A stretch of 63,096 nucleotides of DNA, filler included, from Candidatus Woesearchaeota archaeon (GCA_047603125.1; 9 parts of 9 records of this genome joined end to end with filler, not necessarily neighbours in it), one strand, 5' to 3'. Shown: positions 7,030-62,954, counted from the whole stretch's first letter. The notes: a model not told the origin generated them from the sequence alone. Numbers and translations are program-made.

Positions 7030-7163
7030 TAGTCGACGACATTAATTTCGCATAACCCGGCGATTTCACGACAGTTGTCAAGTTTGCAAAATCAGAGCTG
7101 CATGAATCGCTCTGATTTTTGATTTTACGCCAAGGAGTTATGCTTTTCTTTTGCCGCTAACTA
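7030..7163 (-). repeat. Structured repeat subfamily A, short form (134 bp)
   Basis: Reverse complement of 54329-54462; TAGT...ACTA ends. Confidence 0.95.
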
Positions 7164-7209
7164 AAGACCCCCGCAATAAAAGCAGAATAAAACAAGATTC
7201 GAAGATACC

Positions 7210-8940
7210 CTATGCGCGAAAACGTTTCACCAATATTAGCGCACCAAAAAGAAGCAATAACCAACCAAACATAGACAGAATATATTGCACAAAAAACTCA
7301 TATTGCCCATAAAAAACTAATTGCTTGAACATTTGAGAACTCAAGTGCGCAGGAAAATTATCTGCAAAAAAATACATAAACGTACTCATGCGCTCTAATG
7401 GTAAAAGCATTCCTGAAACAAAAATAAAAAAGACCAGTAAAAATGTTGTTAGCAAAAGCGCAATTGATTCCTTTTGAATACTATATGCTAATAGCATCCC
7501 CAGTAATACAAAAAAAGAAATGGTTAATACCAAAACAAGCAAAATTTCAAATATAAATCTCTCAAACGATAATTGAAACAATAATGAACCTGCAACTAAT
7601 ACAAATACCACCGGAAGTAGCACAACGATCAGACAAGAAAAAAATACTGAAAAAAGATCAGAAAAAAATATTCCCCTTATTAAACGCAAACGTACATACG
7701 ATGAGCTATTTATTTGAACTAAACTAATGAAATTTGAAATAAGAAGCGAAAGAAAAATAGTTATGAGAAAAAGAATCGTAGGATAAATAGTTTGAAGACT
7801 GAGCATATTTAAACCCCTTACAACTAGTTGTGCTTGCTGTTGAGAATCCAACGATTCAAATTCATCAAGAAATTCATCATAATATGGAACATATGCAGGC
7901 TGCGCCTCATACGAAACCGGCTTCAAAAGCTGATCAATATTCACCGAGTCCACAGCCACAAAATCAGAGTTTAATCTCGCAAGTGATCGTGAATTTGTGC
8001 GCAATTGATTCTGAAATGCCGATAAATCAGCACTCATAGTATCGACCACGCGAATTTGATTATCTAAAAATGAAAGAAATGTCTCCAGACCATGCAATTT
8101 ATGATTATAATCCTCTAACTGCATGTTAAAAGATTCAAATTGTGAATTAATACCAAAATGGACAGTTCTTATTTGTGTACGAAACTGAGATATTGCTAAA
8201 AGCAAAGGTTCCTTTTGATATTCAGAAACATTCATATTCCAAAGAATTTGCTCAAAATCAAGTAAATTATCTTCAACCGAAAGCCAATGATTTGTCACCT
8301 GTTCACTCAAGTCTCTATTCACCCAATCCAAACGTTCTAAATCTTCTTTCATTACTCGAGATGTATCGCGCAATGTGTCTCTCGCAGCCTCTAGCTCAAT
8401 TTTAACTGAACGTAAAGTGTCCAAATATCTCGTAATGCTTTGGGCACTTTGTGAGAAAAAATCTTCGTACTGCACTATATTCTCATGCATATCAGAAAAA
8501 CCATCAAGCAACGACTCGGTTTGCTCACGAGACAACTCTTGATTTAACCCATCAATGGTCGCTTGAATTAATTGAAGAATTTCCCAAATCACTGGTTCAC
8601 GAGTATTATCATAATATACACGAATGTGGAAATTATCTTCAGACTCCACAACAACACAAACAAATTGAATGTGATTTTCTAATGCAAACAAACAATCCCC
8701 CAGATCTGAGTAATTGCTAAGCTGAAATTGAGTCTGAAAGCGCTGCTCATAATGAACAAAAACTGAATCTGAATCTTGCACCACCCCTATGGGAACTTTC
8801 ATCAAGCCCTCAGGATTAAATGATAAAAATATCAAACTGATAAGAACAAGTGGAACGACCACTAAGAGAGCAAGGTTTACTTTTCTTCTCAAAAAATTCT
8901 TTAAAATAGCTCCTATTAAATACCAACTAGTGTGAAACAT
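7210..8940 (-). CDS. ABC-2 type permease with long coiled-coil external domain
   Basis: N-terminal TM, coiled coil, C-terminal TM bundle with SGMLLP motif; adjacent to ABC ATPase. Confidence 0.85.
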   Translation of the reverse strand: MFHTSWYLIGAILKNFLRRKVNLALLVVVPLVLISLIFLSFNPEGLMKVPIGVVQDSDSVFVHYEQRFQTQFQLSNYSDLGDCLFALENHIQFVCVVVESEDNFHIRVYYDNTREPVIWEILQLIQATIDGLNQELSREQTESLLDGFSDMHENIVQYEDFFSQSAQSITRYLDTLRSVKIELEAARDTLRDTSRVMKEDLERLDWVNRDLSEQVTNHWLSVEDNLLDFEQILWNMNVSEYQKEPLLLAISQFRTQIRTVHFGINSQFESFNMQLEDYNHKLHGLETFLSFLDNQIRVVDTMSADLSAFQNQLRTNSRSLARLNSDFVAVDSVNIDQLLKPVSYEAQPAYVPYYDEFLDEFESLDSQQQAQLVVRGLNMLSLQTIYPTILFLITIFLSLLISNFISLVQINSSSYVRLRLIRGIFFSDLFSVFFSCLIVVLLPVVFVLVAGSLLFQLSFERFIFEILLVLVLTISFFVLLGMLLAYSIQKESIALLLTTFLLVFFIFVSGMLLPLERMSTFMYFFADNFPAHLSSQMFKQLVFYGQYEFFVQYILSMFGWLLLLFGALILVKRFRA

Positions 8941-8941
8941 T

Positions 8942-9667
8942 TTACGCTAAACCTCGATTTCCTAAAAACAGCGCATGTAAAAATGACTCTAAATTATGTA
9001 AACCGCTTTCCTTTAAAGATAACCTTATACGAAAATCATCATAAAAAGTACCCTCGTGAACCAATCCTAATTGTGAGCAGTGTTTGGCTAAATCTGAGAG
9101 AAGATGACTCGAGATTATTACTATTTTCCCTTCTTTACTTAAATATGAAATTATGTCCCAAACAAATAATTGCAATGAAACATCTATACCATTAAATGGC
9201 TCATCAAAAATCACCACATCAGGATTATGTATCAGCGATACCACTATATCAACCCTTTTTGCCATACCCCCGGATAATTGAGTTACTCGTTTATGCCTCG
9301 CGCCATTCAAATCTAATCTGCTCAATAACCAATTCATACGACGCTTCAACGCACTTTTATTCACCGACAAAAGCCTCCCAAAAAGTAAAATATTTTCTTC
9401 AACAGTTAAATGAGAGTATAATGAATTTTGCTGAGGAGAGTAACCGACATTAGTCCTCAACTGAAACGATTTATTATTTTTAATTAAAGAAACAGTACCT
9501 GAAGTTAAAGATAATTCGCCAATCAAACCCTTGATAAAAGTAGATTTACCCGCTCCTGAAAGACCCATGAGACCTAAAATATCGCCCGAAGTAAGAGTGA
9601 GATTTATGTGTTTTAATTGAAAAGACCCTTGTTTAAAAACACAATCCCTCACAACTAGCTTATTCAT
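8942..9667 (-). CDS. ABC transporter ATP-binding protein
   Basis: GLSGAGKS Walker A, LSGGM signature, IFDEP Walker B, SSH switch. Confidence 0.95.
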   Translation of the reverse strand: MNKLVVRDCVFKQGSFQLKHINLTLTSGDILGLMGLSGAGKSTFIKGLIGELSLTSGTVSLIKNNKSFQLRTNVGYSPQQNSLYSHLTVEENILLFGRLLSVNKSALKRRMNWLLSRLDLNGARHKRVTQLSGGMAKRVDIVVSLIHNPDVVIFDEPFNGIDVSLQLFVWDIISYLSKEGKIVIISSHLLSDLAKHCSQLGLVHEGTFYDDFRIRLSLKESGLHNLESFLHALFLGNRGLA

Positions 9668-9673
9668 TGTCGC

Positions 9674-11092
9674 TTACTTCTCACTAATCGTTCTCGTATG
9701 ACCAAAAGTTTCATACTTAATAACCGTTGGCGGAAGCTTTAAATCACCAAGTATGGAGAGTTTTGATTTAATAGTATAAGTAATGATTCGCTCCTCATAT
9801 GGATCAACACTTGAAAATTCCCACCGAGCAACCGTTCCTTTATGCGGATGCGTAATTATTTTTGCAGGGCGTAATGTACCCACAGCAAAGTCCTTTTCAA
9901 TTTCTGTTATGTTTGGAATTCTTTCAATAATTTTTACATCTTCAAGGTGTCGCTTCGTTCTATTCTTCACATCTAAAATAACTTTGATTTTCTTTATCGC
10001 ACCATCTGTTGAAACAGTCTCAATACGTTTGGTAATGATAATTGGTGAGCGAAACGTGTAATAGAGCACAAGTATCAAAACAACAATTGCCACACCCGTT
10101 GCTACAGAAAAGACAAAGGGTCGATAATTTCGAACAATGCTTAGCTCAATTCCAGCCCCAGGATCCAATGTGATTGAAAAGACTATATTTCCTTCCCCAT
10201 CAATAGTTTGAGACTGAAACGGAATATTTGATTGCGTAAATAAGCGCTCCATGAAATTTGTTTGAATAGTGACTACTTCTGTCGACTGCACATTCCCTCG
10301 ATTTCTCAATTGCACTACATAATCGTATCGCAAAAATTGTTGCTGATCAGTCAACACCGTTCGATGAAATTGTGGCTGGTATGACCGTATTCTCACAGGT
10401 ATCTTTTCAACCGTCCCAAGCGAAATATTATTTGCCGATAATATCACTTCAACCGAAAAATTTTGCTCAGGAGTTGTTGAATCAATTTCATAAGTAAAAT
10501 GTTGCTGAATCTGCTCCCGACCTTCTAAAACCATCGAAAATGACTCAGAAAAATGAGGACTGCGAAATGTCACTTCCAACGGGTCAATTAAAAGTGCATT
10601 TCTGTTAATAAATGTCAAACGAACATCAAATGGCCGACCCGGATTAATAACATTATCCTCACCAACACTAATGCCCGTATAAATTGAGGGTGTAAATGTT
10701 CTTGCCGTGTCAGAATGAATAACTATGTCAACATTTTGTGTATAGCGAAAATCAGTACCAATTGCTTGAACAGTTATCGGAACCGTATATCGAACACCTT
10801 TTGCCAATGAACTTGAAGGATCAAAAATGACTCGTAGAGTACGTGTCTCTCGCGCATCAACTCGAACAACAGACGAACCATAAAATAAGTTCCAAAGCGG
10901 ATCCGTCGTATAGATTGTATACCTATTCGATTGTATATCAAAGTTTGTAATTGTTAAATCAAATTCGGCGACTTCGTCCGAAAAAATTTGATTATTTACT
11001 GGCTCAATTGCCGTTATAAAGTTTGCTTGCGAAAAAACAGCTGTGCTCAAAAATATAATAAATACTATGTATAAGTAACTTCTTACGTTCAT
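9674..11092 (-). CDS. Membrane protein with Ig-like (S-layer/CARDB-type) domains
   Basis: Signal peptide, beta-rich repeats, one TM; start chosen at MNVRS. Confidence 0.7.
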   Translation of the reverse strand: MNVRSYLYIVFIIFLSTAVFSQANFITAIEPVNNQIFSDEVAEFDLTITNFDIQSNRYTIYTTDPLWNLFYGSSVVRVDARETRTLRVIFDPSSSLAKGVRYTVPITVQAIGTDFRYTQNVDIVIHSDTARTFTPSIYTGISVGEDNVINPGRPFDVRLTFINRNALLIDPLEVTFRSPHFSESFSMVLEGREQIQQHFTYEIDSTTPEQNFSVEVILSANNISLGTVEKIPVRIRSYQPQFHRTVLTDQQQFLRYDYVVQLRNRGNVQSTEVVTIQTNFMERLFTQSNIPFQSQTIDGEGNIVFSITLDPGAGIELSIVRNYRPFVFSVATGVAIVVLILVLYYTFRSPIIITKRIETVSTDGAIKKIKVILDVKNRTKRHLEDVKIIERIPNITEIEKDFAVGTLRPAKIITHPHKGTVARWEFSSVDPYEERIITYTIKSKLSILGDLKLPPTVIKYETFGHTRTISEK

Positions 11093-11880: not shown

Positions 11881-11883
11881 GCA

Positions 11884-15383: not shown

Positions 15384-15559
15384 TAGTTAGCAGCAAAAGA
15401 AAAGCATAACTTTTTGGTGCAAAATCAAAAATCAGAGTGATTGTTTGAAAGCTTCTTTCAAACTTGAGGATGAGAATCCGAAAACAAGCAGCTCTGATTT
15501 TGCAAACTTGACAACTGTCGCGAAATCGCCGAGTTATGCGAAATTAATGTCGTCAACTA
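15384..15559 (+). repeat. Structured repeat subfamily A, long form (176 bp, with 42-nt insert)
   Basis: Aligns with 52860-53035 and 54329-54462. Confidence 0.95.
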
Positions 15560-16139: not shown

Positions 16140-16250
16140 ACAGATTTTTGCACAATCTGTCATATATTTCTAACCATCTGTAGAATCCAGTTTCAGTTGT
16201 TAACAAAATGTCGATAACTCAATACTATGCCCCAATTCTTTCTTTTTTTA

Positions 16251-16387
16251 CACTTATGCGAAGATCTCATCCCAGCTTCCCGGTGGGACATACGCCAAAA
16301 TTAGCCTGCAGACAATCGGCTAATTTTGTGATTTCGCTTCAAGGCATAAGTGCTTGCACAGTTTAGGTACGTCTATTCGAAGATACT
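16251..16387 (-). repeat. Structured repeat subfamily E, short form
   Basis: Reverse complement aligns to 52496-52677 except for a 44-nt insert. Confidence 0.92.
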
Positions 16388-16433
16388 GTCCAAAAAAATA
16401 CATTTATAAATATCCTACAACCAAACAAAAACT

Positions 16434-17042: not shown

Positions 17043-17369
17043 TTAAGAATAATCACGCCATGTGTGCTTACACTTCGTGCATTTGAGAAATTTCGTTGCT
17101 GGTTCATCACTTGCCCGTGTTTGAACAAGCCACCAATATGCCTTATCATTACCGCATTTTTCACACACTGCATCTGTTATAGACTGGGAAAGCTGATCAG
17201 AATCTTGCTCAACAACTTCAACAGTCTCTTTTGATTGAACTTCCTGAGTTATTTTAATATCCCCGCTTGTTGGCAACATATATGCACAAATAGGACAAGA
17301 AAGCACCACTCCTTTTTTCGGATCTTTTTTGGGTACAAGCATTGCACCGTCTTTTGGGCAAAATTTCAT
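17043..17369 (-). CDS. tfs: Transcription elongation factor TFS
   Basis: Two Zn ribbons; QTRASDEP acidic hairpin. Confidence 0.95.
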   Translation of the reverse strand: MKFCPKDGAMLVPKKDPKKGVVLSCPICAYMLPTSGDIKITQEVQSKETVEVVEQDSDQLSQSITDAVCEKCGNDKAYWWLVQTRASDEPATKFLKCTKCKHTWRDYS

Positions 17370-17407
17370 ATAAAGAGGAACCAGATAACTTGTTTATAAG
17401 TGTTTTG

Positions 17408-17550
17408 GAAGACGCAGCTTCATCCAAAAAATAAAAAAAGAGCACCTTGTAGCGAAATCAGAAAATTCAACGATTTATACAGTTGAATTTTCGCATAATT
17501 CTCAAAGCGGGACTCTTGAGCCAAATCTACGTGCTCATCTTTAAAAAACG
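17408..17550 (+). repeat. Structured repeat subfamily B (core 17440-17536)
   Basis: GAGCAC...CTCAAAGCGGGACTCTTGAG...GTGCTC shared with copies at 43.2 kb and 57.8 kb. Confidence 0.92.
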
Positions 17551-17583
17551 ATTAGTAGATGACCAGAAGAGACACCTACAAAA

Positions 17584-18342
17584 TCAAACTCCACCAAATA
17601 CAAACGCAAGAATCCACGTGGCAAATATTTTTACATAGCCCGCTAAAGGTATACGAAACATCGCACTCCCTAAATATTGGTCATACGATATGGACACTTC
17701 TTGACGAGGACCTGAACGGATACTGTCGCTATTATGATCCCCTTTGGTTTGAAAAACATACTCGCCATTTTCCATGCGAACATCAACTACTCGATGAATT
17801 ATGGGTATTCCATCCCCGCTTAAAAAGATAATAATTTCACCAACGTCAATATTCTCCGGCGCTTTTGAGCGAATAAGCATAACATCCCCCCTATTAAAAC
17901 CATTTGACAAGTAAAATCGGGAAAAATCCTGTAAAGAAATGTCTTTTTGCTCATACCACTCCCCGCAAAATTGCCAATATTCGCCTAGATCAAATTGCTG
18001 GCGACGTTCAACTTCAACACCACAAATCGCGTAGGAGGAATCTCGACGAAGACACTGCCCGTCTGAAAAGTATTGTAAACAATTACCCACACTTCGATGT
18101 TCCATACTCTCACTCACAACAGCAACAAGAGGAACAGGAGTCTGAAGTAACAAAGATAATCCCGGATAAAATAAAAACTGAATAACCAAGAGTGCGACTA
18201 CAATATTAACAATCCAACTCGCTGGAGAATCTTCATACCAATAAAACTGCCAAAATTTTTGCAATTGCTTCTTGAGACTTTGCCAGGTCATACCAAAAAA
18301 TGAAACCATCATGTTTAAAAAGTCTCTGCTTCTCTCATACAT
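17584..18342 (-). CDS. Signal peptidase I, archaeal Sec11 type
   Basis: SESMEH, GD, IIHRV, TKGD motifs. Confidence 0.92.
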   Translation of the reverse strand: MYERSRDFLNMMVSFFGMTWQSLKKQLQKFWQFYWYEDSPASWIVNIVVALLVIQFLFYPGLSLLLQTPVPLVAVVSESMEHRSVGNCLQYFSDGQCLRRDSSYAICGVEVERRQQFDLGEYWQFCGEWYEQKDISLQDFSRFYLSNGFNRGDVMLIRSKAPENIDVGEIIIFLSGDGIPIIHRVVDVRMENGEYVFQTKGDHNSDSIRSGPRQEVSISYDQYLGSAMFRIPLAGYVKIFATWILAFVFGGV

Positions 18343-27751: not shown

Positions 27752-27870
27752 GTGTAAACAGCAAGGTATCTTCCCGTACATAAGTACAGTACAAATATCC
27801 ACGCAGGCTTGCTTAACTACCGTGTTCGAAATGGGAACGGGTGTACCCAAACCGCTATGGCCGTTTACAT
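27752..27870 (-). rRNA. rrf: 5S rRNA (stand-alone)
   Basis: GGCCATAGCG...CCCGTTCCCATTTCGAACACGG.AGTTAAG; terminal helix TGTAAAC/GTTTACA; own TATA at 27891-27898 and T-tract. Confidence 0.95.
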
Positions 27871-43133: not shown

Positions 43134-43278
43134 GAAGACGCACAGGTTTGAAAAATAAGAAAGAAGAGCACCTTGCAGCAAAATCAGAAAATTTGGTGAT
43201 TCTTGCAACCAAATTTTTGCAAGATACTCAAAGCGGGACTCTTGAGCCAAATCTGCGTGCTCTTTTTTGAAAAACAAT
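43134..43278 (+). repeat. Structured repeat subfamily B (core 43161-43267)
   Basis: Aligns to 17408-17550 and 57797-57930. Confidence 0.92.
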
Positions 43279-48925: not shown

Positions 48926-49049
48926 CNNNNNNNNNNNNNNNNNNNNNNNNNNNNNNNNNNNNNNNNNNNNTTAATTAATTAANNNNNNNNNNNNNNNNNN
49001 NNNNNNNNNNNNNNNNNNNNNNNNNNTAAAACTATCTGAAAATGATTTT

Positions 49050-49225
49050 TATTGAAAGTTTCGCGGGTATAATGCCCCGGACTTCAGTCCGCAAACTCTC
49101 AATTCAAAAGTTCGCAATTACTAGAGAAGTGAAATACCTCGCTCTTTTAGGGCGGGAATACCTAGAAAGTTTTCTAGGTTTGAAAAATTTGTGTTTTTCA
49201 ATTAGCTTCGAGCAGCGAACTTTTG
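49050..49225 (-). mobile_element. Repeat C, palindromic non-autonomous element with IS200/IS605-like hairpins
   Basis: Aligns to 57932-58062 plus a ~45-nt double-hairpin insert. Confidence 0.65.
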
Positions 49226-49675
49226 CTATTCAGCTCTCATTCTATGAAAGTAAGACTGATCAATAATGAGTTGCAAGCGCTTTGAGATAGGTTGTCGTGG
49301 CAATATTCCTAATACTGCGTAACTAAATTTTTTCAAATCTTTAGTGTACAAAGCTTTTCGCACATCTTCTTGCTGCTTTGGAGTGCCGAGAAGAACTAAT
49401 TCTGCTCGAAATTTTTGTTTGGGTTGGCTTGAAGCACAGACTGTTTGCGCAATTTCTTCTAAACGCTCACACAGTGTTTCGTCAAATGCTGTAACTGTTG
49501 TAGTAAAGTCATAATAAGACCTCCCGTGAACTTCGACCTCGTATACTAAATCATTTAAGAACGCATCATACACATATGCTTTGGGCTTTATTTCATGTAT
49601 CCAATTTTTAATAGTGGGTGAGAGTGCTACTAATCCGATTCGTGTTGTGTTTGGAATTTTATACATTGTTCTCAA
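49226..49675 (-). CDS. Hypothetical protein (paralog of 49689-50246)
   Basis: TTRIGLVAL...QSYFHR. Confidence 0.75.
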   Translation of the reverse strand: MRTMYKIPNTTRIGLVALSPTIKNWIHEIKPKAYVYDAFLNDLVYEVEVHGRSYYDFTTTVTAFDETLCERLEEIAQTVCASSQPKQKFRAELVLLGTPKQQEDVRKALYTKDLKKFSYAVLGILPRQPISKRLQLIIDQSYFHRMRAE

Positions 49676-52449: not shown

Positions 52450-52495
52450 ACTATGTGAGGCTGATTGCAACTTTATAAATGTTATTGTTTGATAT

Positions 52496-52677
52496 AGTAT
52501 CTCCGAATAGACGTACCTAAACTGTACAAGCACTTATGCCTTGAAGCGAAATCACAAAATTAGCCGACTGTCTGCAGGCTAATTTTGGCGTATATCTCAC
52601 CGGGAAGGTTGAAAGTAACGTCTTCAACCTTGAAGACTTTAGTCTGAAAAGCTGGGATGAAATCTTCGCATAAGTGC
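52496..52677 (+). repeat. Structured repeat subfamily E, long form (44-nt insert at 52607-52650)
   Basis: Aligns to the reverse complement of 16251-16387. Confidence 0.92.
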
Positions 52678-52859
52678 AAAAGAAGAGAGAATCTTCTGCT
52701 CTGCATCGCTTATTGGAGCACCAAACAACGGCTTTGATTTCTTCCATTTTTCTAATNNNNNNNNNNNNNNNNNNNNNNNNNNNNNNNNNNNNNNNNNNNN
52801 TTAATTAATTAANNNNNNNNNNNNNNNNNNNNNNNNNNNNNNNNNNNNNNNNNNNNATT

Positions 52860-53035
52860 TAGTTAGCGGTAAAAGAAAAGCATAACTCCTTGGCGTGAAA
52901 CCAAAAATCAGAGTGATTGTTTGAAAGCCTCTTTCAAACTTGAGGATGAGAATCTGAAAACATGCAGCTCTGATTTTGCAAACTTGACAACTGTCGTGAA
53001 ATCGCCGAGTTATGCGAAATTAATGCCGTCGACTA
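52860..53035 (+). repeat. Structured repeat subfamily A, long form
   Basis: Aligns to 15384-15559. Confidence 0.95.
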
Positions 53036-53083
53036 ATTGTTCCATGTTTAATGAGATTTGTAAATTTGAGCTTCACCGAGTAA

Positions 53084-53150
53084 TTGTTTTTTAAAGAAGA
53101 GCACGCAGATTTTGCTGTAAGGTGCTCTTCTTTTTTTGGGTGGAGCCCTC
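53084..53150 (-). repeat. Subfamily B internal-deletion derivative
   Basis: AAAGAAGAGCAC CTT ACAG CAAAAT CTGC GTGCTCTTCTTT with B-type flanks. Confidence 0.8.
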
Positions 53151-53192
53151 AAATCTGTAACATTTATAAACTCACAGATGCCAAAAAGAGGT

Positions 53193-53984
53193 ATGGTTTT
53201 AGAACTGCTCTTAAATCCAAAAATTGAACGTGCGCATAAGAGTAAGTTTGTTCTTGTTGGTTTTTTATATACATTGCTTGCATGTGGTATTGCGCTCTTA
53301 GTCTTTCCCTCGCAAAGCAGCATTTTAAGCGTTTTTTTAGTGGTGCTTAGTGTCGCACCCTTCATGTATCATATGCTTGAGCGGGAAGAAATAAAGGAAC
53401 TGTCTTTTATTCATCCAGGGCAATTATTAAAGGAATATGGAAATATCATTTCTGTTTTGTTATTGCTGTTTTTAGGCATTGTTTTAGGATATACGATAAT
53501 GTATCTGTATAATCCCGATAGTGCGCTCTTTGAGCTGCAACGTCCATATATAGAAAATCGGCAGGTTCCTACGCCTGAGCATTTTGAGAGCATTTTTTTG
53601 AATAATGTTATTGTCTTGCTTATCTGCGGGGCGTTTGCGTTTTTCTTTGGTTTTGGTGCTATTTTTGTGATAACCTGGAATGCGACCATTTTAAGTTTAG
53701 CCATTGGCTCATCCATTGTTTATGCGGGTGAGACGGGGAGTGTACTTGCGTTTTTTATTGCATTTTTTCAATTCATCCCCCATGGTATATTTGAAATAGG
53801 TGCGTATTTTTTAGCAGGAATGGGTGGCTCATTTATTTCTTTTGGTATTATTCATAAAGAATATACACAGGGATTATTCTCAAAGACACTCTCGGATGGT
53901 TTTTTTCTCTTTTTTTTAGCCATTATTTGTTTAGTCTTTGCAACATTTATTGAAATAATGGTGTATCCATTACTGTTCATGTGA
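53193..53984 (+). CDS. SpoIIM/DUF95 family membrane protein
   Basis: IFLNN, WNA, PHGIFE, A..IE. Confidence 0.9.
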   Translation: MVLELLLNPKIERAHKSKFVLVGFLYTLLACGIALLVFPSQSSILSVFLVVLSVAPFMYHMLEREEIKELSFIHPGQLLKEYGNIISVLLLLFLGIVLGYTIMYLYNPDSALFELQRPYIENRQVPTPEHFESIFLNNVIVLLICGAFAFFFGFGAIFVITWNATILSLAIGSSIVYAGETGSVLAFFIAFFQFIPHGIFEIGAYFLAGMGGSFISFGIIHKEYTQGLFSKTLSDGFFLFFLAIICLVFATFIEIMVYPLLFM

Positions 53985-54053
53985 GGATTTTTTATTTTGT
54001 AGTGGCACTGTATAAAGAAAATCTTTATAAATGGGATTTCCACAAAAGTATGT

Positions 54054-54308
54054 ATGGTAATGACAAGACAGCTGTGGCGGACAAAATATCCTTGGATTTT
54101 GGTGATGTATATTTTTGCGTTTGGTGTATTTATTGGTCTTATGAAAATGAACCTGCAGACAAATACGGGATTAATTTCAGCTGATTTAGTTAATTTTTAT
54201 ATGAATTTACTCATGATGTTAATTTTTACCAGTTATGTATTTTTATTTATATTCTATATTTACGGTGTGCGTCCTTTGGAGTTGGAGCATCATTTTCGCC
54301 GCCGCTAA
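54054..54308 (+). CDS. Small two-TM membrane protein
   Basis: Two hydrophobic helices; TATA about 30 nt upstream. Confidence 0.7.
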   Translation: MVMTRQLWRTKYPWILVMYIFAFGVFIGLMKMNLQTNTGLISADLVNFYMNLLMMLIFTSYVFLFIFYIYGVRPLELEHHFRRR

Positions 54309-54328
54309 ATTCTTTTTTTTCTTACATG

Positions 54329-54462
54329 TAGTTAGCGGCAAAAGAAAAGCATAACTCCTTGGCGTAAAATCAAAAATCAGAGCGATTCATGCAGCTCTGA
54401 TTTTGCAAACTTGACAACTGTCGTGAAATCGCCGGGTTATGCGAAATTAATGTCGTCGACTA
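54329..54462 (+). repeat. Structured repeat subfamily A, short form
   Basis: Reverse complement of 7030-7163. Confidence 0.95.
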
Positions 54463-54508
54463 ATGAGTCGTTAGGTTTATATACGATTGACGTGTTCAAG
54501 GTAGTATA

Positions 54509-55915
54509 ATGGCAAAAAGTGATTTAGGAATTACCGTCTCAAAACAAGAAGACATTGCACAGTGGTATGAGCAAATTTGTTTGAAGTCGCAAATTGCAGA
54601 TTTTGGTGATGTACGAGGAACAATCGTCATTCGAGCACGTGGATATTACATGTGGGAGCAAATACAGGCATTTGTAAATGAACAAATTGTTCGAGCGCTT
54701 AATGTTGATAATTGTTATTTTCCATTATTTATTCCTGAACGGTTTTTTGTTAAAGAAGCAGAGCATGCAAAAGGGTTTGCTCCGGAGCTTGCTTGGGTGA
54801 CAACTTCACAGGGTGAGGGTGGGGAGAAAGCAATCATTCGCCCGACGTCTGAGACAATAATTGTGGATAATATGCGAAAATGGCTTCGAAATTATAGACA
54901 ATTACCTATCAAAGTCAATCAATGGGCAAATGTGGTTCGCTGGGAAGTCAAACAAACAAAATTATTTTTACGTGGTCGAGAATTTTTGTGGCAGGAAGGG
55001 CATTGTATTTACCAAACACAAGAAGAGTGTGAGGCTGATGTAAAGCAGGTTTTATCGTTATATGAAAAATTATGTTCGGATGTGTTAGCACTTCCTGTTT
55101 TTGCAGGTGAAAAATCGCCAATGGAGCGCTTTCCTGGAGCAAAAAAAACATTTGGAATCGAATCAATTATGCCTGATGGAAAGTCATTGCAGATGGGAAC
55201 ATCGCATTATTTAGGACAAGGGTTTATGGAAGCATTTGATGTAAAGTTTATGGGTTCAGATGGGCAAGAACATTATCCTCATTACAATTCGTGGGGTGTT
55301 TCAACACGGCTTTTAGGAGCAGTAATTATGATGCACTCGGATGATCGCGGTCTTGTTTTACCACCCAAATTAGCAAAGCAAAAAGTAGTTGTTATACCCG
55401 TAAAAGAAGATGATGTTGAATATGCAAATACTGTAGCAGCATCTTGTGGTGCAATGCTTGATGATAGAGAAGGATATTCGCTTGGGTTTAAGCTCTCAGA
55501 CACAGAACTGCAAGGAATTCCGTTGACAATTATCATCGGTGCGCGCGAGCGAGAAACAAAAATGGCAACAGTAAAAGCTCGAGATACGGGTGAGAAAGTT
55601 CAAGTTCCAGTTGCCGATGTTCCGTCTTTTGTTCATGAGCAGCTCGAACAAATGCACACAAGATTATTTGAAAAGGCAAAAGAATGGATGGATTCTTGTA
55701 TTGTGGATGTGCAAACTCAAGATGAATTTGAAGTCCAATTACAAGCGGGAAAGACCGTTCGGGCGTATTTTAGTGGTGATGAGACAGCTGAAGAACAATT
55801 AAAAGAACGATTGGGTATTACGAGTCGTTTATTACAAGAAGCAAAAACGCCGGGTGTATGCATTCTTACGGGTAAAAAAACGCAAACGATTGCAACATTT
55901 GGAAAAAGTTACTAA
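54509..55915 (+). CDS. proS: Proline--tRNA ligase (archaeal/eukaryotic type)
   Basis: RPTSET, VVRWE, REFLWQEGH, SWGVSTR, terminal KSY. Confidence 0.98.
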   Translation: MAKSDLGITVSKQEDIAQWYEQICLKSQIADFGDVRGTIVIRARGYYMWEQIQAFVNEQIVRALNVDNCYFPLFIPERFFVKEAEHAKGFAPELAWVTTSQGEGGEKAIIRPTSETIIVDNMRKWLRNYRQLPIKVNQWANVVRWEVKQTKLFLRGREFLWQEGHCIYQTQEECEADVKQVLSLYEKLCSDVLALPVFAGEKSPMERFPGAKKTFGIESIMPDGKSLQMGTSHYLGQGFMEAFDVKFMGSDGQEHYPHYNSWGVSTRLLGAVIMMHSDDRGLVLPPKLAKQKVVVIPVKEDDVEYANTVAASCGAMLDDREGYSLGFKLSDTELQGIPLTIIIGARERETKMATVKARDTGEKVQVPVADVPSFVHEQLEQMHTRLFEKAKEWMDSCIVDVQTQDEFEVQLQAGKTVRAYFSGDETAEEQLKERLGITSRLLQEAKTPGVCILTGKKTQTIATFGKSY

Positions 55916-55917
55916 TC

Positions 55918-56398: not shown

Positions 56399-56571
56399 NN
56401 NNNNNNNNNNNNNNNNNNNNNNNNNNNNNNNNNNNNNNNNNNTTAATTAATTAANNNNNNNNNNNNNNNNNNNNNNNNNNNNNNNNNNNNNNNNNNNNTG
56501 CTCTTTTTTATTTTTTAAATCAGCTCTAGAATCTGATAATTTTATAAACTCACCTTACTTGGCTAGTTTCT

Positions 56572-57796: not shown

Positions 57797-57930
57797 GAAA
57801 ACGAGGCTTCATCTAAAAATAAGAAAAAAGAGCACTTTGTAGTAAAATCCGAAAAGGCGTAGCCGAATTTTCGCATAATACTCAAAGCGGGACTCTTGAG
57901 CAAAATCTGCGTGCTCTTTTTTGAAAAATA
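57797..57930 (+). repeat. Structured repeat subfamily B (core 57824-57922)
   Basis: Aligns to the 17.4 kb and 43.2 kb copies; P3 arm replaced. Confidence 0.92.
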
Positions 57931-57931
57931 A

Positions 57932-58062
57932 CAAAAGTTCGCTGCTCGAAGCTATCCCGCCCTAAAGGGAAGGGGTATTACGCTTCTCACCTAATCGCGA
58001 ACTTTTGAATTGAGAGTTTGCGGACTGAAGTCCAGGGTATTGTACCCGCGAAACTCTCAATA
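57932..58062 (+). mobile_element. Repeat C, palindromic non-autonomous element with IS200/IS605-like hairpins
   Basis: CAAAAGTTCGC/GCGAACTTTTG and TTGAGAGTTT/AAACTCTCAA stems enclosing CCCTAAAGGG and GGACTGAAGTCC hairpins. Confidence 0.65.
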
Positions 58063-58086
58063 ATAATTAGATGGAATTAGTACTAT

Positions 58087-58782: not shown

Positions 58783-58880
58783 GTCTGCTTTTTATGAATG
58801 ACCATATTTAAATGTTTGTGTAATCATATGATGATTCAAACGAGAAGCTTTATAAATACGTGGTAGCCTTCCAAAAATAT

Positions 58881-58952
58881 GCCTCAGTAGCTCAGTGGTA
58901 GAGCACCTGACTTGTAATCAGGAGGTCGAGGGTTCAAGTCCCTCTTGAGGCT
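58881..58952 (+). tRNA. tRNA-Thr(TGT)
   Basis: Cloverleaf with CCTGA-CTTGTAA-TCAGG arm; T73; TATA at 58849-58856. Confidence 0.97.
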
Positions 58953-58964
58953 TGGTTTTTTTCT

Positions 58965-59486
58965 CTATGTATTATTGTAATGTACATTAACAAAATCATC
59001 TAGTCGCCCATTACAGGGTAGTCTACATGTATTGCACTCACCCATAATTTTTTGAACCGCAAGTTGACGAGTAGCTAATTGTAAGTAATGTTGTCTTTCT
59101 TGTTCATTGAGTCGCAATAATGGGTGTAAACTATTTTGCACAGTTCCAATAATGTACATTCTTCCAACACCAAGTGAGTTTCTAAATGTGCGTTGATTCT
59201 CTTCCCAGAAAGTCCCTGTGATTGGTTGACCTGCTTCATGTAGTCTTGCTCTATCTCGAAGGCCAATTCGCAATGCATAAATATTCATTCCTTGATGGAT
59301 TCTATCACCGTCTTGTTCACAAAGTGTTTGTAAATTAGGAGCCCACTTGTCTGTAAGCAAGTCCCTTGGTGTTACTGGACTAAAATCATCTTGTGGTTGT
59401 CCGATGCTGTATGCAAAATTAGGGGCTGCAAGAATATTGGCATAGTGGCGCAATGCAGCCATTTGTGGTGTATGTGCTGTATTCAT
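58965..59486 (-). CDS. Hypothetical protein between two tRNA-Thr genes
   Basis: 173-aa ORF with C-terminal CxxCxxxC; own TATA. Confidence 0.65.
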   Translation of the reverse strand: MNTAHTPQMAALRHYANILAAPNFAYSIGQPQDDFSPVTPRDLLTDKWAPNLQTLCEQDGDRIHQGMNIYALRIGLRDRARLHEAGQPITGTFWEENQRTFRNSLGVGRMYIIGTVQNSLHPLLRLNEQERQHYLQLATRQLAVQKIMGECNTCRLPCNGRLDDFVNVHYNNT

Positions 59487-59600
59487 AGACGTAATTTTTA
59501 TCTATTTGTATTTATAAACTCAATGGGTTTTCTTTGATATAAATATACCAAAGAAGAAATAAGAAATTTTATAAATAACCCACCAGCCATGCTCTATGTC

Positions 59601-59672
59601 GCCTCAGTAGCTCAGCGGTAGAGCGGCTGCCTAGTAAGCAGCAGGTCGGGGGTTCAATTCCCTCCTGAGGCT
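59601..59672 (+). tRNA. tRNA-Thr(AGT)
   Basis: Cloverleaf with GCTGC-CTAGTAA-GCAGC arm; anticodon AGT at 59633-59635; TATA at 59568-59575; T-tract follows. Confidence 0.93.
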
Positions 59673-59894
59673 TTTTTCTGGTTTATTTCGCAGAGTAGTT
59701 TTCTGTAACCATAATTTAGTACGTAAAAAGTTAGGTTTTTACCATTCTTAGATTTTGAAAGATATTTTTCCCTTGTAATTTCCAAGTATGTATTNNNNNN
59801 NNNNNNNNNNNNNNNNNNNNNNNNNNNNNNNNNNNNNNTTAATTAATTAANNNNNNNNNNNNNNNNNNNNNNNNNNNNNNNNNNNNNNNNNNNN

Positions 59895-60159
59895 AAGAAG
59901 AGAGAATCTTCTGCTCTGCATCGCTTATTGGAGCACCAAACAACGGCTTTGATTTCTTCCATTTTTCTAATAAATCTTGTAAAGAGGTTTTGGAATACGC
60001 AAGAGTATCAAGATATAAATCAAAAGTCATATCTTTATCAAATTCAAGTATATCTACCAGATTTAGATGCTATTCATTGGCATCTGAATGTGATGCCATA
60101 TTCTTCGGATAATTTTTTTTAGAAGCAATTTCTGAGAGGTATTGATATAAGTGTTTCAT
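59895..60159 (-). pseudogene. Probable gene remnant with in-frame TAG (60070-60072)
   Basis: ATG at 60159, TAG after 29 codons, then continues in frame (HLNLVDILEFDKDMTFDL...) into the contig end. Confidence 0.4.
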
Positions 60160-60209
60160 ACTATCACTTCTAACCAAACTTTTATATACTCTTCAACTAA
60201 AAATAAGTT

Positions 60210-61364
60210 ATGAAAATTTACTTAGGAATTTTTTTCTACCTAATTATATTAACTGCGTGTTCTATTGAAAATGATTTAACAGAATCCGATTTTATTGAAA
60301 ATACACTTCATAGGTTTATGGTTGATAGTGAAATTGATGAGAGTGAATATGTATTTCATTTTACTTTAGAATTAAAATTTCCGCTTGAAGCTCATAGCAC
60401 ACAGGTTGAAAATTACACAGGTTTTATTCCTGAAGACATTATACTTAAAGAAGTAACTGAAAATGGTGAAATTCTTAGAGACATAGGAACATTGCACCAC
60501 GTCGTGGGAGATGAAAGAAAATTTCACCTTGAAGGGAGTACTTATATAGAGATTGAGAGATTTACTGGAACGTATGTAATACCGTGGTCTGGTGAGAGAA
60601 CAAGACATGTTATATTTATTTTTGAAAGAAATAACACCTTATATAAAAGTACGCCATATTCATTTGACTATGAAAGGCTTTCTCTTCATCACAAAAGATT
60701 TGTTAGAATTCAAGAAGAGGGTCCCAAACCAAATCCACCATCATTTTGGCGAAGTGAAGAAACAAATACATTTGAAGTATTTGTTAACGCAAAGGAAATT
60801 ATGGATGTAGATGGTCAAATTCCATTATCTGTATCACTTGAAGAGATAGATAAAGATGAAACGCTTATACAAAAAATTGTTAATTTAAATTTATCCGAAG
60901 GGTCATATCGTGGAATTATTGATATTCCTAAAAGTGATAGGAGCATACGTTATTTTCGTGCAAGTCTAGAAAGAACAACTGGTGAAATTGCGCAGAGTAA
61001 TCCTACCCGCATATACTATGAGGTGGAGATAATACCTATTATTACAGGTGAAGAAAAACGTGCTCAGAATAGAGTGGAAGATAATGGTGAACTTTTCTAC
61101 CCTGATGAAATTGATGTCTGTTTTGCTCAAAAAACACCTTCAGAACGAATTGCACAGATATTGAATGAACAACAACTAAAAGCAATACCTCCATTATCCT
61201 CCGGTTCTTATGAAATACATGATCAGTGTTTTTGGCTTTTGTTGTATAATCAGCGTCTCGAAACAGCAGAAGATACTATTACACTTGCACAAAAGCTCAT
61301 GGATTATGAAGAAATTCTATTCGCATTACCTAACTATTTAATACAAACTACTGTCCAAGAATGA
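60210..61364 (+). CDS. Acidic lipoprotein
   Basis: LTAC lipobox; two similar Ig-like segments; C-terminal YPDEIDV.F...A.PNY. Confidence 0.75.
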   Translation: MKIYLGIFFYLIILTACSIENDLTESDFIENTLHRFMVDSEIDESEYVFHFTLELKFPLEAHSTQVENYTGFIPEDIILKEVTENGEILRDIGTLHHVVGDERKFHLEGSTYIEIERFTGTYVIPWSGERTRHVIFIFERNNTLYKSTPYSFDYERLSLHHKRFVRIQEEGPKPNPPSFWRSEETNTFEVFVNAKEIMDVDGQIPLSVSLEEIDKDETLIQKIVNLNLSEGSYRGIIDIPKSDRSIRYFRASLERTTGEIAQSNPTRIYYEVEIIPIITGEEKRAQNRVEDNGELFYPDEIDVCFAQKTPSERIAQILNEQQLKAIPPLSSGSYEIHDQCFWLLLYNQRLETAEDTITLAQKLMDYEEILFALPNYLIQTTVQE

Positions 61365-61409
61365 TGAAAGTTGAGGAATTTGTCTAATAAGCTTTCGTTA
61401 ATTTTTATT

Positions 61410-61709
61410 CTATTCGAATTCAACAATAACACTATTTGTATCAATGACTATTCTTTTCTTACCAATTTCTGCCTTACGCACATTATTCTTTTGTACGGAT
61501 TGCTTCTTGAACTGAGTTTATATTTCTTGTGCAACTGACTTAAAATCTAGTTCAGTTATCTTTACCTTTCTAAATAAAAATCTTTCTTTAACAAGGAACG
61601 CACTAAATTGCTTTCCTGGGTTTAATTTTGCAATACTTTGGACTTTAGAGAAAAAATAACCCCAAAAAAGACACAAACCATTTATATGCGAACATCTCAA
61701 AAGAGACAA
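61410..61709 (-). pseudogene. Decayed AbrB-PIN (VapBC-like) remnant
   Basis: LNPGKQF..FLFRKV..DF, internal TAA, then KRIVIDTN truncated by TAG. Confidence 0.45.
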
Positions 61710-61710
61710 A

Positions 61711-62805
61711 ATGAATAAGGGGTGGTTTCTCCTAGTTAGTATTTTTCTTGGTTGTGTACAGGTCTTTAGCTCATCTCACTCCGCGGATCATTCTTTTGGC
61801 CCTTCTTTTCCCCTTGAATATGTCTCGCAAGAATACTATGTACTTGTTGGCGCAGGACTTCTAGTAGCAATGGTTTTTGCAACGCTACTGCTCGAGTCAA
61901 ACGTGCAAAAAATAAGCCTTAAAGCAAATAAAACGGTAAGTCTCGTTTTATTAGGTGTGGCAAGTTCGCTCCCTCTAATAATTATTTCAATTACAAGTGC
62001 GCTCAGTGGCAATACCACCATTGCGCTTGTAAGCATTATTGGCACAAATATAGCAAATATTACGCTCGTTTTAGGGCTTTTAGGACTCTTAAAACCACTT
62101 TCTATAGGAAAAAACTTTTTGATTGGCGTATGTGCGTTTATTACGCTCCTAGCCCTCACAGCTCTCTTTTTTGTTAGTGTCGCAACACCCTTTGATCAGC
62201 AAGCTTCACCAATTATTGATCAAAAAAGCGAGGCATTTTTAGAAATAAAAGACGTGTTTTGGTTGGTAGTCATTTTTTTTATATTTCTTGTTCTTGTACA
62301 AAAATTCTTTCATCAAATTCCTGTAGAAAATGTGCAATTTTCTCTTCTTGGAGCAACGCTAAAATCACTTTTATATGGAACATTTGTTTGTTGGAGTGCA
62401 TTTGAGGCAACAAGAATTTTTATTTTGATAGCACAAATCAATAATGTGCCTGATATAATTATTGCAACAACACTCGTTTTAATTGGAACATCGCTTCCTG
62501 AGCTCTCTGTTGGACTCGCAGCAATCGTAAAAAAACATGACGTTGATGTGTCGAGTAATCTTATAATGAGTGTGCTGGTTAATTTAGTTGTTCCTATAAG
62601 TTTGATTCTTGCGATTACCAAAACAATGGTTGTTGAAGATTTTATTCTATCGTATCACATTCCCTTTCTTTTACTGAGCTTTTTATTTGCCATAGGCTGC
62701 CTCTATTCTCGAGTAGATTTTCTTGGAAGGTTTAAGAGTCTCTTGCTCATTGGTTTATATGTTCTGTTCATCGTCGGTCTTTCTGTTGATTTTCATTTTT
62801 TTTGA
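61711..62805 (+). CDS. CaCA family cation/Ca2+ antiporter (YrbG-like)
   Basis: Alpha repeats ASSLP..IGTNIAN and GTSLPEL..SN. Confidence 0.88.
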   Translation: MNKGWFLLVSIFLGCVQVFSSSHSADHSFGPSFPLEYVSQEYYVLVGAGLLVAMVFATLLLESNVQKISLKANKTVSLVLLGVASSLPLIIISITSALSGNTTIALVSIIGTNIANITLVLGLLGLLKPLSIGKNFLIGVCAFITLLALTALFFVSVATPFDQQASPIIDQKSEAFLEIKDVFWLVVIFFIFLVLVQKFFHQIPVENVQFSLLGATLKSLLYGTFVCWSAFEATRIFILIAQINNVPDIIIATTLVLIGTSLPELSVGLAAIVKKHDVDVSSNLIMSVLVNLVVPISLILAITKTMVVEDFILSYHIPFLLLSFLFAIGCLYSRVDFLGRFKSLLLIGLYVLFIVGLSVDFHFF

Positions 62806-62854
62806 ACTAGAAAATGGACGTGTCAAAAATTACATGAAAAGTATACTGACATCC

Positions 62855-62954
62855 TTGCTACTGCACGGCGATTTCACGACAGCTGTCTTTTCTGCGTCGA
62901 AGCACCTGCATGAATCGGCACTTCTCCTGATTTTACGCCAAGGTGCAGTAGCAA
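62855..62954 (-). repeat. Structured repeat subfamily D (diverged relative of A)
   Basis: 12-bp closing stem TTGCTACTGCAC/GTGCAGTAGCAA; shares CTTGGCGTAAAATC, GATTCATGCA and GTCGTGAAATCGCC with A. Confidence 0.88.

Follow-up and report, generated by a model that had tools for sequence, protein, structure and literature searches.

The window analysed here, a stretch of 63,096 nt from Candidatus Woesearchaeota archaeon (GCA_047603125.1), is not one stretch of the genome: nine contigs (C40, C41, C42, C44, C47, C48, C52, C56 and C58) are joined in it by N44-TTAATTAATTAA-N44 linkers. It carries dispersed copies of repeat families A, B, D, E and N (Table 1), several of them at contig ends, where the assembly was broken by the repeats. 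The repeat units extend beyond the fold described below and have inverted-repeat ends: family A measures 134 or 176 bp and family B about 153 or 194 bp.

Table 1. Repeat copies and insertion sequence remnants in the window
Feature	Coordinates	Strand	Details
Family A MITE, short form (134 bp)	7030..7163	-	Fold and R1 match 7053-7140 (C41:1346-1433); bordered by 3-bp duplication AAG/CTT
Family N MITE, ends GACAGTGTTTGAA	14839..14922	-	C42:3514-3597; 5′ two-thirds of fold lost; 8-bp duplication with one mismatch
Family A MITE, long form (176 bp)	15384..15559	+	Fold and R1 match 15407-15536; 42-nt two-hairpin insert in P3 loop
Family E element	16250..16388	-	Fold 16250-16353 (R1 match 16254-16349); terminal repeat CAGTATCTTCGAAT at 16375-16388
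Family B MITE, short form	17416..17564	+	Fold and R1 match 17440-17536; outer ends similar to GGCTTCATCC / GGATGAAGCC
Family B fold	43166..43262	+	R1 match; outer arms degenerate
Decayed ISH3-like insertion sequence, left part	52495..52756	+	Terminal repeat 52495-52508; E fold 52530-52677 (R1 match 52534-52673) with 44-nt two-hairpin insert in P4, then minus-strand remnants of transposase C-terminus
Family A MITE, long form	52860..53035	+	R1 match 52883-53012; starts contig C52; 3-bp duplication ATT
Family B remnant	53068..53146 (about)	-	Both arms and P1 retained, most of fold deleted (direct sequence reading)
Family A MITE, short form	54329..54462	+	R1 match 54352-54439; 3-bp duplication ATG
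Final bases of B copy	56499..56512	-	Cut by contig start; remainder at end of contig C60
Family B copy, P3 shortened	57805..57916	+	R1 match 57830-57916; right arm replaced by a family R copy
Same decayed insertion sequence, continuation	59895..60165	-	59895-59971 identical to 52680-52756 (contig overlap); transposase remnants match residues 301-351 and 22-64, one stop; right terminal repeat not found here
Family D element	62855..62954	-	R1 match 62861-62948; 12-bp P1 forms the inverted-repeat ends

Inspection of the sequences and matches to a covariance model, R1 (built from 16 copies; 97 positions, 26 pairs), established that all repeat sites listed in the first-pass annotation contain what was described there. 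At two of them, 53093 and 56499, this holds for the B sequence and not for the full fold, one copy being internally deleted and the other cut by the contig end. The N copy was absent from that list. R1 matched ten copies over their full length in the window (4 A, 3 B, 2 E and 1 D) and 103 in the 1.116 Mb draft genome, of which four overlapped a called ORF by at least 30 nt. Matches were also obtained in six of nine other genomes of the same family and in one of 71 genomes from other families of the order. In this genome such elements reach a density of about 90 per Mb and a share of about 1.5%. Family R, another abundant repeat of this genome, has a different fold and also folds strongly (z = -5.7).

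A shared, covarying three-way junction

An internal module of about 90-100 nt is common to all families and is predicted to fold as a three-way (Y-shaped) junction. Individual foldings and R1 both recovered the layout originally proposed: P1, a CTT bulge, a 4-bp P2, RAAATC, P3, a GC linker, P4, P2′ and P1′, with P3 loops that resemble one another (GATTnnTnCA). The proposal that stems change while pairing is kept was borne out as well: both sides vary in 24 of the 26 base pairs, and cells changed on both sides numbered 426 against 130 in shuffles, none of the 500 shuffles reaching the observed value. Overall, 90.7% of cells were paired, compared with 61% in shuffles; as a control, sliding the partners by 1-3 columns lowered paired cells to 32-46%. 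Comparison of 23 sub-lineages showed conserved junction and loop letters between variable stems, conservation reaching 90% or more at CCTTG, at GATT and T.CA within the P3 loop, at the G that follows P3 and at the CG where P2′ and P1′ meet. Nor did the module match any known family at gathering score in Rfam 15, in keeping with the first description: across the whole window, 5S rRNA and three tRNAs were the sole matches, and the best E-values from permissive scans (0.82 for 52450-54550 and 0.65 for 17350-17650) lay far below gathering scores.

The covariation might instead be a neutral by-product of a functionless fold, as MITEs have a palindromic construction and their hairpins may have been kept perfect through template switching or gene conversion. 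The absence of orientation bias and the partly mutational look of the G-T excess (both below) agree with this, as does the strong folding of family R in the same genome. We nevertheless hold it to be unlikely, since the same architecture and unpaired letters persist in at least 23 sub-lineages, at least four end classes and eight genomes, with every stem sequence different. Moreover, all 17 B-type end pairs (at most one mismatch) enclose the fold, and the one N copy with a deleted core is single-copy.

Element ends, target-site duplications and an ISH3-like parent

The families differ in their terminal inverted repeats: TAGTTAGCGGC / GTCGTCGACTA for A, GGCTTCATCCAA / TTGGATGAAGCC for B, GGTTTGTGTAAAAA for F and GACAGTGTTTGAA for N. 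Their MITEs are non-coding, multi-copy and 134-195 bp long. Family A is flanked by duplications of 3 bp in 18 of 21 copies and of 4 bp in two. For family B we found 9 bp in 14 of 29 copies (one mismatch allowed), 8 bp in one, 7 bp in one and, with boundaries held fixed, no duplication in 11. Family F duplicates 9 bp, and family N 8 bp in both copies scored and likewise in its long copy. The same associations were seen in relatives, where TAGTTAGCGAC ends come with a 3-bp duplication (G046 and G006) and GGCTTCATCC ends with a 9-bp one (G007). Family-specific ends with fixed duplication lengths suggest that DDE transposases, provided in trans, made staggered cuts, and the three lengths would require transposases of more than one type. 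Over 94 nt, twenty A copies share 96-100% identity with the window copy; this near-identity suggests a recent burst. In two DNA runs, no contig skipped either A copy of contig C52.

A parent was found for the E-type fold, which in relatives sits within a 1270-bp insertion sequence encoding an ISH3-like DDE transposase. At locus L024, perfect 15-nt inverted repeats (1461-1475 and 2716-2730) enclose an ORF scoring 56.9 bits against PF01609 (DDE_Tnp_1), above the cut-off of 23. Its best NCBIfam model is ISH3 (NF033541) at 107.9 bits; as this is below the curated cut-off of 225, the transposase is a distant ISH3 relative rather than a member of the model. The fold (1497-1600) is on the opposite strand to the ORF, the module being bordered by one terminal repeat on one side and by the transposase gene's conserved end on the other, with its CTT strand antisense to the last codons. 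G005 and L057 show the same arrangement, and ends like CAGTATCTCCGAAT are common to L024, the G005 copy and the E copies of the window.

In this genome, the E-type insertion sequence is represented by remnants only, and PF01609 has no match. Neither PF12762 nor PF13359 matched in ten genomes of the family, and an autonomous element with A, B, F or N ends was not found in this genome or the family genomes searched. Since draft genomes probably lack short multi-copy contigs, this absence is weak evidence. Among 79 metagenome loci with distant transposase homologues (26-35% identity), none had an R1 match.

It is highly probable that the elements are MITEs and insertion sequences with a shared structured module, a judgement that concerns what the elements are and extends to no particular function of the module. 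They are an unusual form of familiar mobile DNA.

The first reading had also offered a substrate for an HUH-type mobiliser, which the ends and duplications do not support. Single-stranded DNA substrates of a Y1 transposase, like REP/BIME with RAYTs or the IS200/IS605-derived PATEs, would be hairpin-rich and strand-asymmetric, as these elements are, and the genome does contain one Y1_Tnp match (44.4 bits). HUH elements, however, are not known to have target-site duplications or terminal inverted repeats, both of which are present here, and the E fold sits within a DDE element. In addition, the genome shows no HUH trace other than this Y1 match, a fragment of 67 residues that ends just past the HUH motif, in a region stop-rich in all frames and more than about 8 kb from the nearest fold. 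Searches for mobiliser genes likewise found no intact Y1, TnpB or reverse transcriptase. We thus regard an HUH origin as extremely improbable.

Insertion at the upstream edge of promoters

Gene positions were derived from crude calls (ATG-started ORFs of at least 100 aa). ORFs were called on both sides of 81 copies, of which 33 occupy divergent, 45 tandem and 3 convergent gaps; the tandem gaps hold 23 antisense and 22 sense copies, that is, no orientation preference. The distance from element end to facing start codon was 42-49 nt in 24 of 60 cases; either element end and each of families A, B, F and N showed the peak, and 21 of 37 testable elements fell in this range against 2.0 expected. In the window, the minus-strand gene 17043-17369 has its start codon (17369) about 47 nt from the left end of the B copy at 17416..17564. 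Genome-wide, 226 of 954 genes have a TTTAWA motif that begins 28-30 nt ahead of the ATG. The insertions are thus located just upstream of BRE/TATA, mostly of leaderless genes and in either orientation. Different families re-use the same spot, as with the 9-bp target GTTGTGAAA taken by a B copy and an F copy. Promoter-edge targeting of this kind would be undescribed in archaea within the literature searched; selection acting on a compact genome, rather than targeting, could also account for part of this positioning.

Location between gene ends and the next promoter would also suit a host processing or termination signal, such as a bulge-helix site for tRNA splicing endonuclease or a bidirectional terminator, that makes insertions harmless. 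B copies have T6 runs after P1 on both strands, and the 3-nt bulge beside a 4-bp helix resembles half of a bulge-helix-bulge. The archaeal motif has a 3-nt bulge on either strand, in both cases 3′ of a 4-bp helix. The bulge of the CTT strand is 5′ of its helix, the wrong handedness for the canonical motif derived from tRNA introns, and the other strand forms no second bulge or inner helix; family A lacks T runs on the CTT strand, and little read-through is expected for the 33 copies between divergent promoters. Such a signal is therefore very unlikely. The elements do not have the structure of a bulge-helix-bulge intron, the single bulge being 5′ of the helix on the favoured strand.

Strand asymmetry, RNA and possible roles of the module

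The reported excess of same-strand G-T mismatches, counted on the CTT strand, was confirmed: mismatch cells of P1-P3 comprise 84 G-T and 19 A-C, in 41 and 15 distinct contexts respectively. Selection need not be its full cause, as part of the excess may be mutational: among 42 B copies, unpaired columns show more C>T than G>A changes (49 vs 13) and more A>G than T>C changes (40 vs 15). Two metatranscriptome libraries yielded RNA contigs that include A, B and F copies, one 197-nt contig spanning the A copy at 54329..54462 without mismatch (54327-54523); these contigs carry no strand information and transcript ends are not derivable from them. Element depth is close to the level of a single gene in the metatranscriptome libraries and 20-40 times higher in the DNA libraries.

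Strong covariation, conserved unpaired letters, the one-strand G-T excess, presence in RNA libraries and an apical domain variable in P3 or P4, as in many RNAs, are all compatible with a multicopy structured ncRNA gene family, possibly a self-cleaving ribozyme, spreading as an RNA gene. This proposal of the first-pass annotation found no support as a stand-alone family and is in our view highly improbable: the elements have terminal inverted repeats and fixed duplications, show no orientation bias relative to genes, and include one subfamily that belongs to a DDE-bearing insertion sequence. Furthermore, inspection revealed no recognisable archaeal promoter positioned to transcribe P1, RNA depth per copy is far under gene level, the best Rfam E-value is 0.65, and the junction strands are unlike the hammerhead core.

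As for the module of these MITEs and insertion sequences, it would act as a single strand, RNA or single-stranded DNA, in the CTT sense, and the elements would keep it out of a need in cis. Our leading, tentative suggestion is that it may be a regulatory or insulating structure at the transposase-distal end, for example an antisense, terminator-like or protein-binding RNA; we consider this possible without expecting it. A bolder alternative is that the module helps to choose the promoter-edge target. In its specific form, CTT-sense RNA or single-stranded DNA would be a cofactor directing integration by different DDE transposases to the upstream edge of promoters, about 45 nt before the start codon, and may bind TFB/TBP, the pre-initiation complex or the transposases. 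Such a role would explain the common fold and common spot despite 3-, 8- and 9-bp duplications; at present we judge it distinctly unlikely.

Should the elements require the fold in cis, it would represent a rare structured single-stranded element that serves DDE-type transposons and is common to several transposon lineages. For the annotation of DPANN genomes, the elements matter in that they break assemblies, resemble ncRNA genes and occupy a large fraction of promoters.

ISH3-family insertion sequences (NF033541, PF01609/PF04693) are archaeal DDE elements, and the E-type parent resembles them in its 15-nt inverted repeats, its length of about 1.27 kb and its single DDE_Tnp_1 transposase; a structured module over the non-conserved tail of the transposase ORF is not known from ISH3. 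The IS903, ISH1 and IS1031 groups of the IS5 family make 9-, 8- and 3-bp duplications, and IS903 ends start with GGCTTTG (ISfinder). Here the duplication is 9 bp in B and F, 8 bp in N and 3 bp in A, and B ends start with GGCTT. The assignment would be one by family traits, as no IS5-type transposase was found in the ten genomes searched.

RNA-OUT of IS10, like other regulatory RNAs of transposon ends, is structured. The module is likewise predicted to be structured, and it lies at a transposon end in antisense overlap with the transposase gene; unlike RNA-OUT, it overlaps the 3′ rather than the 5′ end of the gene and is also retained in MITEs whose stems differ from any known transposase gene. 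Among eukaryotic retroelements, Ty3 inserts at Pol III start sites, and TRE5-A integrates upstream of tRNA genes at a distance of about 48 bp. Insertion in either orientation, at a set distance from a factor-bound promoter, is common to both cases, whereas the present elements are archaeal DNA transposons, and selection may take the place of targeting.

Prokaryotic MITEs include the Correia elements of Neisseria, RUP and BOX of pneumococcus and the SM MITEs of Sulfolobus. Like them, the elements studied here are small, non-coding and intergenic, occur in multiple copies and have terminal inverted repeats and target-site duplications. A prokaryote-wide MITE census (Nucleic Acids Res 2024, PMC11602168) gives 105 MITEs per Mb for one genome of Woesearchaea, and the literature searched yielded no description of a shared module or fixed-distance insertion in archaeal MITEs. 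In contrast to the known MITEs, one covarying module here spans families with differing ends and duplication lengths, and the elements insert at a constant distance ahead of start codons.

A covarying module common to the dispersed repeats

The first-pass annotation had listed dispersed repeats with one common fold, and a direct check of all of its sites found the described repeat at each. The site at 56499, rightly called partial, preserves the tail of a B copy, and the body of this copy is found at the end of contig C60; that at 53093 is indeed a B copy with both arms kept, but its fold is mostly deleted. From window and genome we took 16 short-form copies, aligned them (alignment A1) and built from them a covariance model of the fold (R1; 97 positions and 26 pairs in stems P1–P4). 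R1 matched 10 full copies in the window and 103 in the genome at E <= 0.01, and BLAST with the ten window copies as queries gave 106 genome loci.

Covariation was then measured on 56 R1 matches, drawn from the window, from contigs outside it and from seven further genomes. Paired cells amounted to 90.7%, against 61.1% after shuffling and 32–46% with partners slid by 1–3 columns, in an alignment that was fitted to R1 and hence somewhat favours structure. Both sides had changed in 24 of the 26 pairs, as the annotation had claimed of the stems, and none of 500 shuffles reached the observed covariation score. P4 fell into two alignment registers and was only 70.6% paired. Conservation of 90% or more across 23 sub-lineages was seen for CCTTG, which runs from the last P1 pair through the bulge to the first P2 pair, for the GATT and T.CA of the P3 loop, for the G that follows P3 and for the CG where P2' meets P1'. 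An Rfam scan, at gathering and at permissive thresholds, returned no match for the repeats, which the annotation had not recognised as a known family.

Several readings of the fold were tried and rejected. By eye, a hammerhead in the 42-nt insert (TTGA-hairpin-GAAAA) was discarded, with the 4-bp hairpin as helix II and the seven letters 5' of the hairpin misfitting CUGANGA, as was a K-turn at the CTT bulge or in the M-family P3 loop, where the tandem G-A beside a 3-nt bulge is missing. A1 shows no supporting covariation for a pseudoknot between AAATC (J2/3) and GATT (P3 loop), and a bulge-helix-bulge intron has the wrong handedness. Nor is the fold a coding sequence: transposase homologues traverse it in differing frames. 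Fold energies compared between strands were mixed and gave no discrimination.

Element ends and the parent insertion sequence

Alignment of the flanks showed that the repeat unit exceeds the fold and is bounded by outer inverted repeats, then by direct repeats of the target. Target-site duplications were scored by script with fixed element boundaries. Family A (134 bp; 176 bp with insert) had 3 bp in 18 of 21 copies, 4 bp in two and 1 bp in one. Family B (about 153 or 194 bp) had 9 bp in 14 of 29 copies, one mismatch allowed; one copy each had 8, 7, 3 and 1 bp, and 11 had none at these fixed boundaries. Family N (151 bp) showed an 8-bp duplication in 2/2, likewise in a long and in a core-deleted copy, and family F one of 9 bp after a one-base boundary shift, by reading of the sequence. 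Relatives shared end classes and duplication lengths, TAGTTAGCGAC with 3 bp (genomes G046 and G006) and GGCTTCATCC with 9 bp (G007), on fold stems that differ. Twenty A copies were 96–100% identical to the window copy over the 94 nt compared; identity among B copies was about 73–92%. Inverted-repeat ends and target duplications are what defines a MITE mobilised by a DDE transposase. The annotation had proposed, from the covarying single-stranded structure, the substrate of an HUH-type mobiliser; we score this lower than the regulatory role considered below.

An optional 42-nt module (hairpin, TTGA, 4-bp hairpin, GAAAA) sits in the P3 loop between GATT and nATGCA, in long forms of families A, B, D, F, G and H. 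Its 48 descriptor matches comprised 33 inside model matches, in one constant orientation, ten in F or truncated copies and 5 apparently due to chance; none was free-standing. In the E copy at 52530 a variant of this design occupies the P4 loop, its stems altered by three compensatory changes, and copies of families J and N and of G007 have a different two-hairpin insert, also at the P3 site.

Of 25 ORFs beside fold copies in relatives, one was a transposase (PF01609, 56.9 bits), the others being housekeeping or without match. The element at L024, a locus of another genome, is 1270 bp long with perfect 15-nt inverted repeats; among NCBIfam models its transposase scores highest with ISH3, at 107.9 bits where the curated cut-off is 225. 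Its E-type fold lies between one terminal repeat and the transposase gene, on the opposite strand. The same arrangement was found in a second insertion-sequence copy in genome G005 (two in-frame stops) and in a metagenome copy, L057 (65% identical; weak fold match, 27.5 bits). Among 80 metagenome loci with transposase homologues, L057 alone had an R1 match, which the 79 more distant ones (26–35% identity) lacked. The transposase ORF continues through the fold. The conserved protein ends ..EQKILSSF in 73 homologues, and the tails that follow diverge (e.g. LHQSAN..ISLQGISAC, FPCH..CMNQAE) and use different fold frames, so the overlap is incidental.

The source genome holds the parent as remnants only; the right terminal repeat of its decayed ISH3-like copy was not found. 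Searches of this genome or its family detected no transposase for families A, B, F and N, and no reverse transcriptase or TnpB, mobiliser genes that the annotation had suggested looking for. Those for DDE_Tnp_1, IS1595 and DDE_4 gave none, except an ISH3-like gene in two relatives. A scan of a genome-contig collection with the single transposase as query matched the query's own record alone, and viral contigs, scanned for exact A and B arms, gave 0 matches. Pairing of A, B, F, N or E ends into long elements in the source genome was at chance level at two mismatches and nil at one. This genome contains no contigs under 2.5 kb and homologues usually occur on contigs of 1.2–1.5 kb; collapsed insertion-sequence contigs of that size would be lost, so the absence of a transposase is weak evidence. 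As for Y1 genes, a fragment outside the window is a pseudogene-like relic in a stop-rich gap.

Coordinates of features (window positions unless a contig or locus is named)
Feature	Position	Strand	Observation
Repeat-containing ORF	1614-4706	-	1030 codons; 75-bp tandem repeats x5 at 2041-2529, identity 66-83%; probably a repeat-built surface protein
Rfam tRNA match	6854-6983	-	51.5 bits, span 130 nt; no ARAGORN call; ~45 nt from A copy at 7030; probably an intron-containing tRNA
E-type terminal-repeat lookalike	7197-7210	-	Lone; GGGTATCTTCGAAT, 2 mismatches; ~35 nt from A copy at 7030; perhaps left by an earlier insertion there
5S rRNA gene	27753-27868	-	
Family R	49046-49231	-	
Family R	57925-58065	+	
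Decayed ISH3-like copy	52495-52756 and 59972-60165		Internal deletion, one stop
Overlap of two contigs	52680-52756 and 59895-59971		77 identical bases, beside an element copy
RNA-library match	54327-54523		Exact match to 197-nt contig; A copy plus unique flank
tRNA-Thr (TGT)	58881-58952	+	
tRNA-Thr (AGT)	59601-59672	+	Spacing between the two genes 720 nt
..ATGTTAAACCCCGCATTTTTTAT..	63020-63096		Contig end
Element end sequences			TAGTTAGCGGC, GGCTTCATCC, GGTTTGTGTAAAAA, GACAGTGTTTGAA
L024 inverted repeats	L024 1461-1475 and 2716-2730		
L024 E-type fold	L024 1497-1600		
Head-to-head fold copies	L048 (G008:C192) 392-483	+	Locus in a relative; sub-lineages of the two copies differ; spacer 0; just upstream of eRF1 gene
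Head-to-head fold copies	L048 (G008:C192) 484-575	-	
Y1 (IS200/IS605-type HUH) transposase fragment	G000 C25:38117-38290	-	67 residues; ends just past HVH motif

Insertion sites, assembly and other repeats

Gene calls were crude (ATG-started ORFs of at least 100 aa; 973 genes). ORFs flanked 81 of the 103 copies on both sides, in 33 divergent, 45 tandem and 3 convergent gaps, and four copies overlapped an ORF by at least 30 nt. For 54 A, B, F and N copies with both ends defined, the distance from element end to facing start was 42–49 nt in 24 of 60 cases, with a mode at 44–46; the peak is present in each of these families and the gene faces either element end. Among copies flanked by an ORF on each side and faced by one or more starts, 21 of 37 fell at this distance, against 2.0 expected from uniform placement in the same gaps. 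Genome-wide, 226 of 954 genes have a TTTAWA starting 28–30 nt ahead of the ATG, and most mRNAs thus appear to be leaderless. The end of the element would presumably lie some 8–9 nt upstream of the expected BRE position. One 9-bp target was used successively by a B copy and an F copy, A and B copies were found abutting, and no joint skipping an element was seen in the read-library contigs, where gaps in RNA-library cover are uninformative. The promoter-edge position may be due to targeting or to strong selection on a compact genome, with targeting favoured by how sharp the peak is. The elements are DDE-type MITEs with a decayed ISH3-like parent, a common covarying module and promoter-edge insertion.

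The draft genome (70 contigs, 1,115,666 bp, 36% G+C) shows archaeal traits: TATA boxes 28–30 nt before start codons, eRF1 genes in relatives and an ISH3-like transposase. The window, 63,096 bases long, is not one continuous genome stretch; it is composed of nine contigs, C40, C41, C42, C44, C47, C48, C52, C56 and C58, linked by N44-TTAATTAATTAA-N44, and this linker is what the window repeat search returned as its largest family, D1. Contig ends hold several element copies and two contigs overlap by 77 bases next to one, so the repeats broke the assembly.

A second abundant repeat, family R (about 190–200 bp; self-BLAST cover 19–36), folds strongly into a different two-domain structure (159 nt, -54.4 kcal/mol, z = -5.7) and in some places substitutes one arm of a B copy. 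A 76–80-nt sequence (..ATGTTAAACCCCGCATTTTTTAT..) stands at at least 7 contig ends, among them those of C1, C2, C11, C21, C34, C39 and C63, and the related ..ATGTTAAACCTCGCATGTTTTTAT.. at seven further ends. The pair may mark both termini of a multi-copy insertion sequence with an unassembled or unbinned body.

Strand asymmetry, transcripts and role of the module

The annotation had read most stem mismatches as G-T on one strand. In P1–P3 of 116 distinct sequences the excess favoured the bulge-bearing (CTT) strand, with 84 G-T against 19 A-C cells, or 41 against 15 by distinct position and context; the 56-sequence alignment gave 35 against 6. This strand runs antisense to the transposase gene in the full insertion sequence. 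Among 42 B copies, the unpaired columns showed C>T 49 against G>A 13 and A>G 40 against T>C 15, counted as cells and not as independent events, so the G-T asymmetry may stem in part from strand-biased mutation instead of selection on pairing. Whichever the cause, the strandedness is intrinsic to the element and host gene orientation is no explanation. In tandem gaps the CTT strand was antisense to the genes in 23 copies and sense in 22. A host processing or termination signal is among the readings we score lower than a regulatory structure.

Element contigs occur in two metatranscriptome libraries, as an A copy with flank (table) and as F and B long forms. Elements had RNA-library depths of 1.4–2.9, similar to single genes (0.9–6), and DNA-library depths of 72–198 against 3–6 for unique sequence. 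From this contrast the RNA signal, on contigs that carry neither strand nor ends, is unlikely to be DNA carry-over, and expression per copy is low. A free RNA gene or ribozyme, the other proposal of the first-pass annotation, is likewise scored lower.

All 17 B-type end pairs found at no more than one mismatch enclose a fold, and the one N copy that has lost its core is present just once, which hints weakly at a cis requirement for the fold. The module would act single-stranded and would be retained because successful elements need it; a neutral by-product is again scored lower. We tentatively favour a structure with a regulatory or insulating role, placed at the transposase-distal end, a reading that we still consider doubtful, and, more boldly, the module could help select the promoter-edge target. 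In the open-access literature on archaeal MITEs we found neither a shared structured core nor promoter-edge insertion described. As to abundance, a MITE census gives 105 MITEs per Mb for a Woesearchaea genome (PMC11602168).
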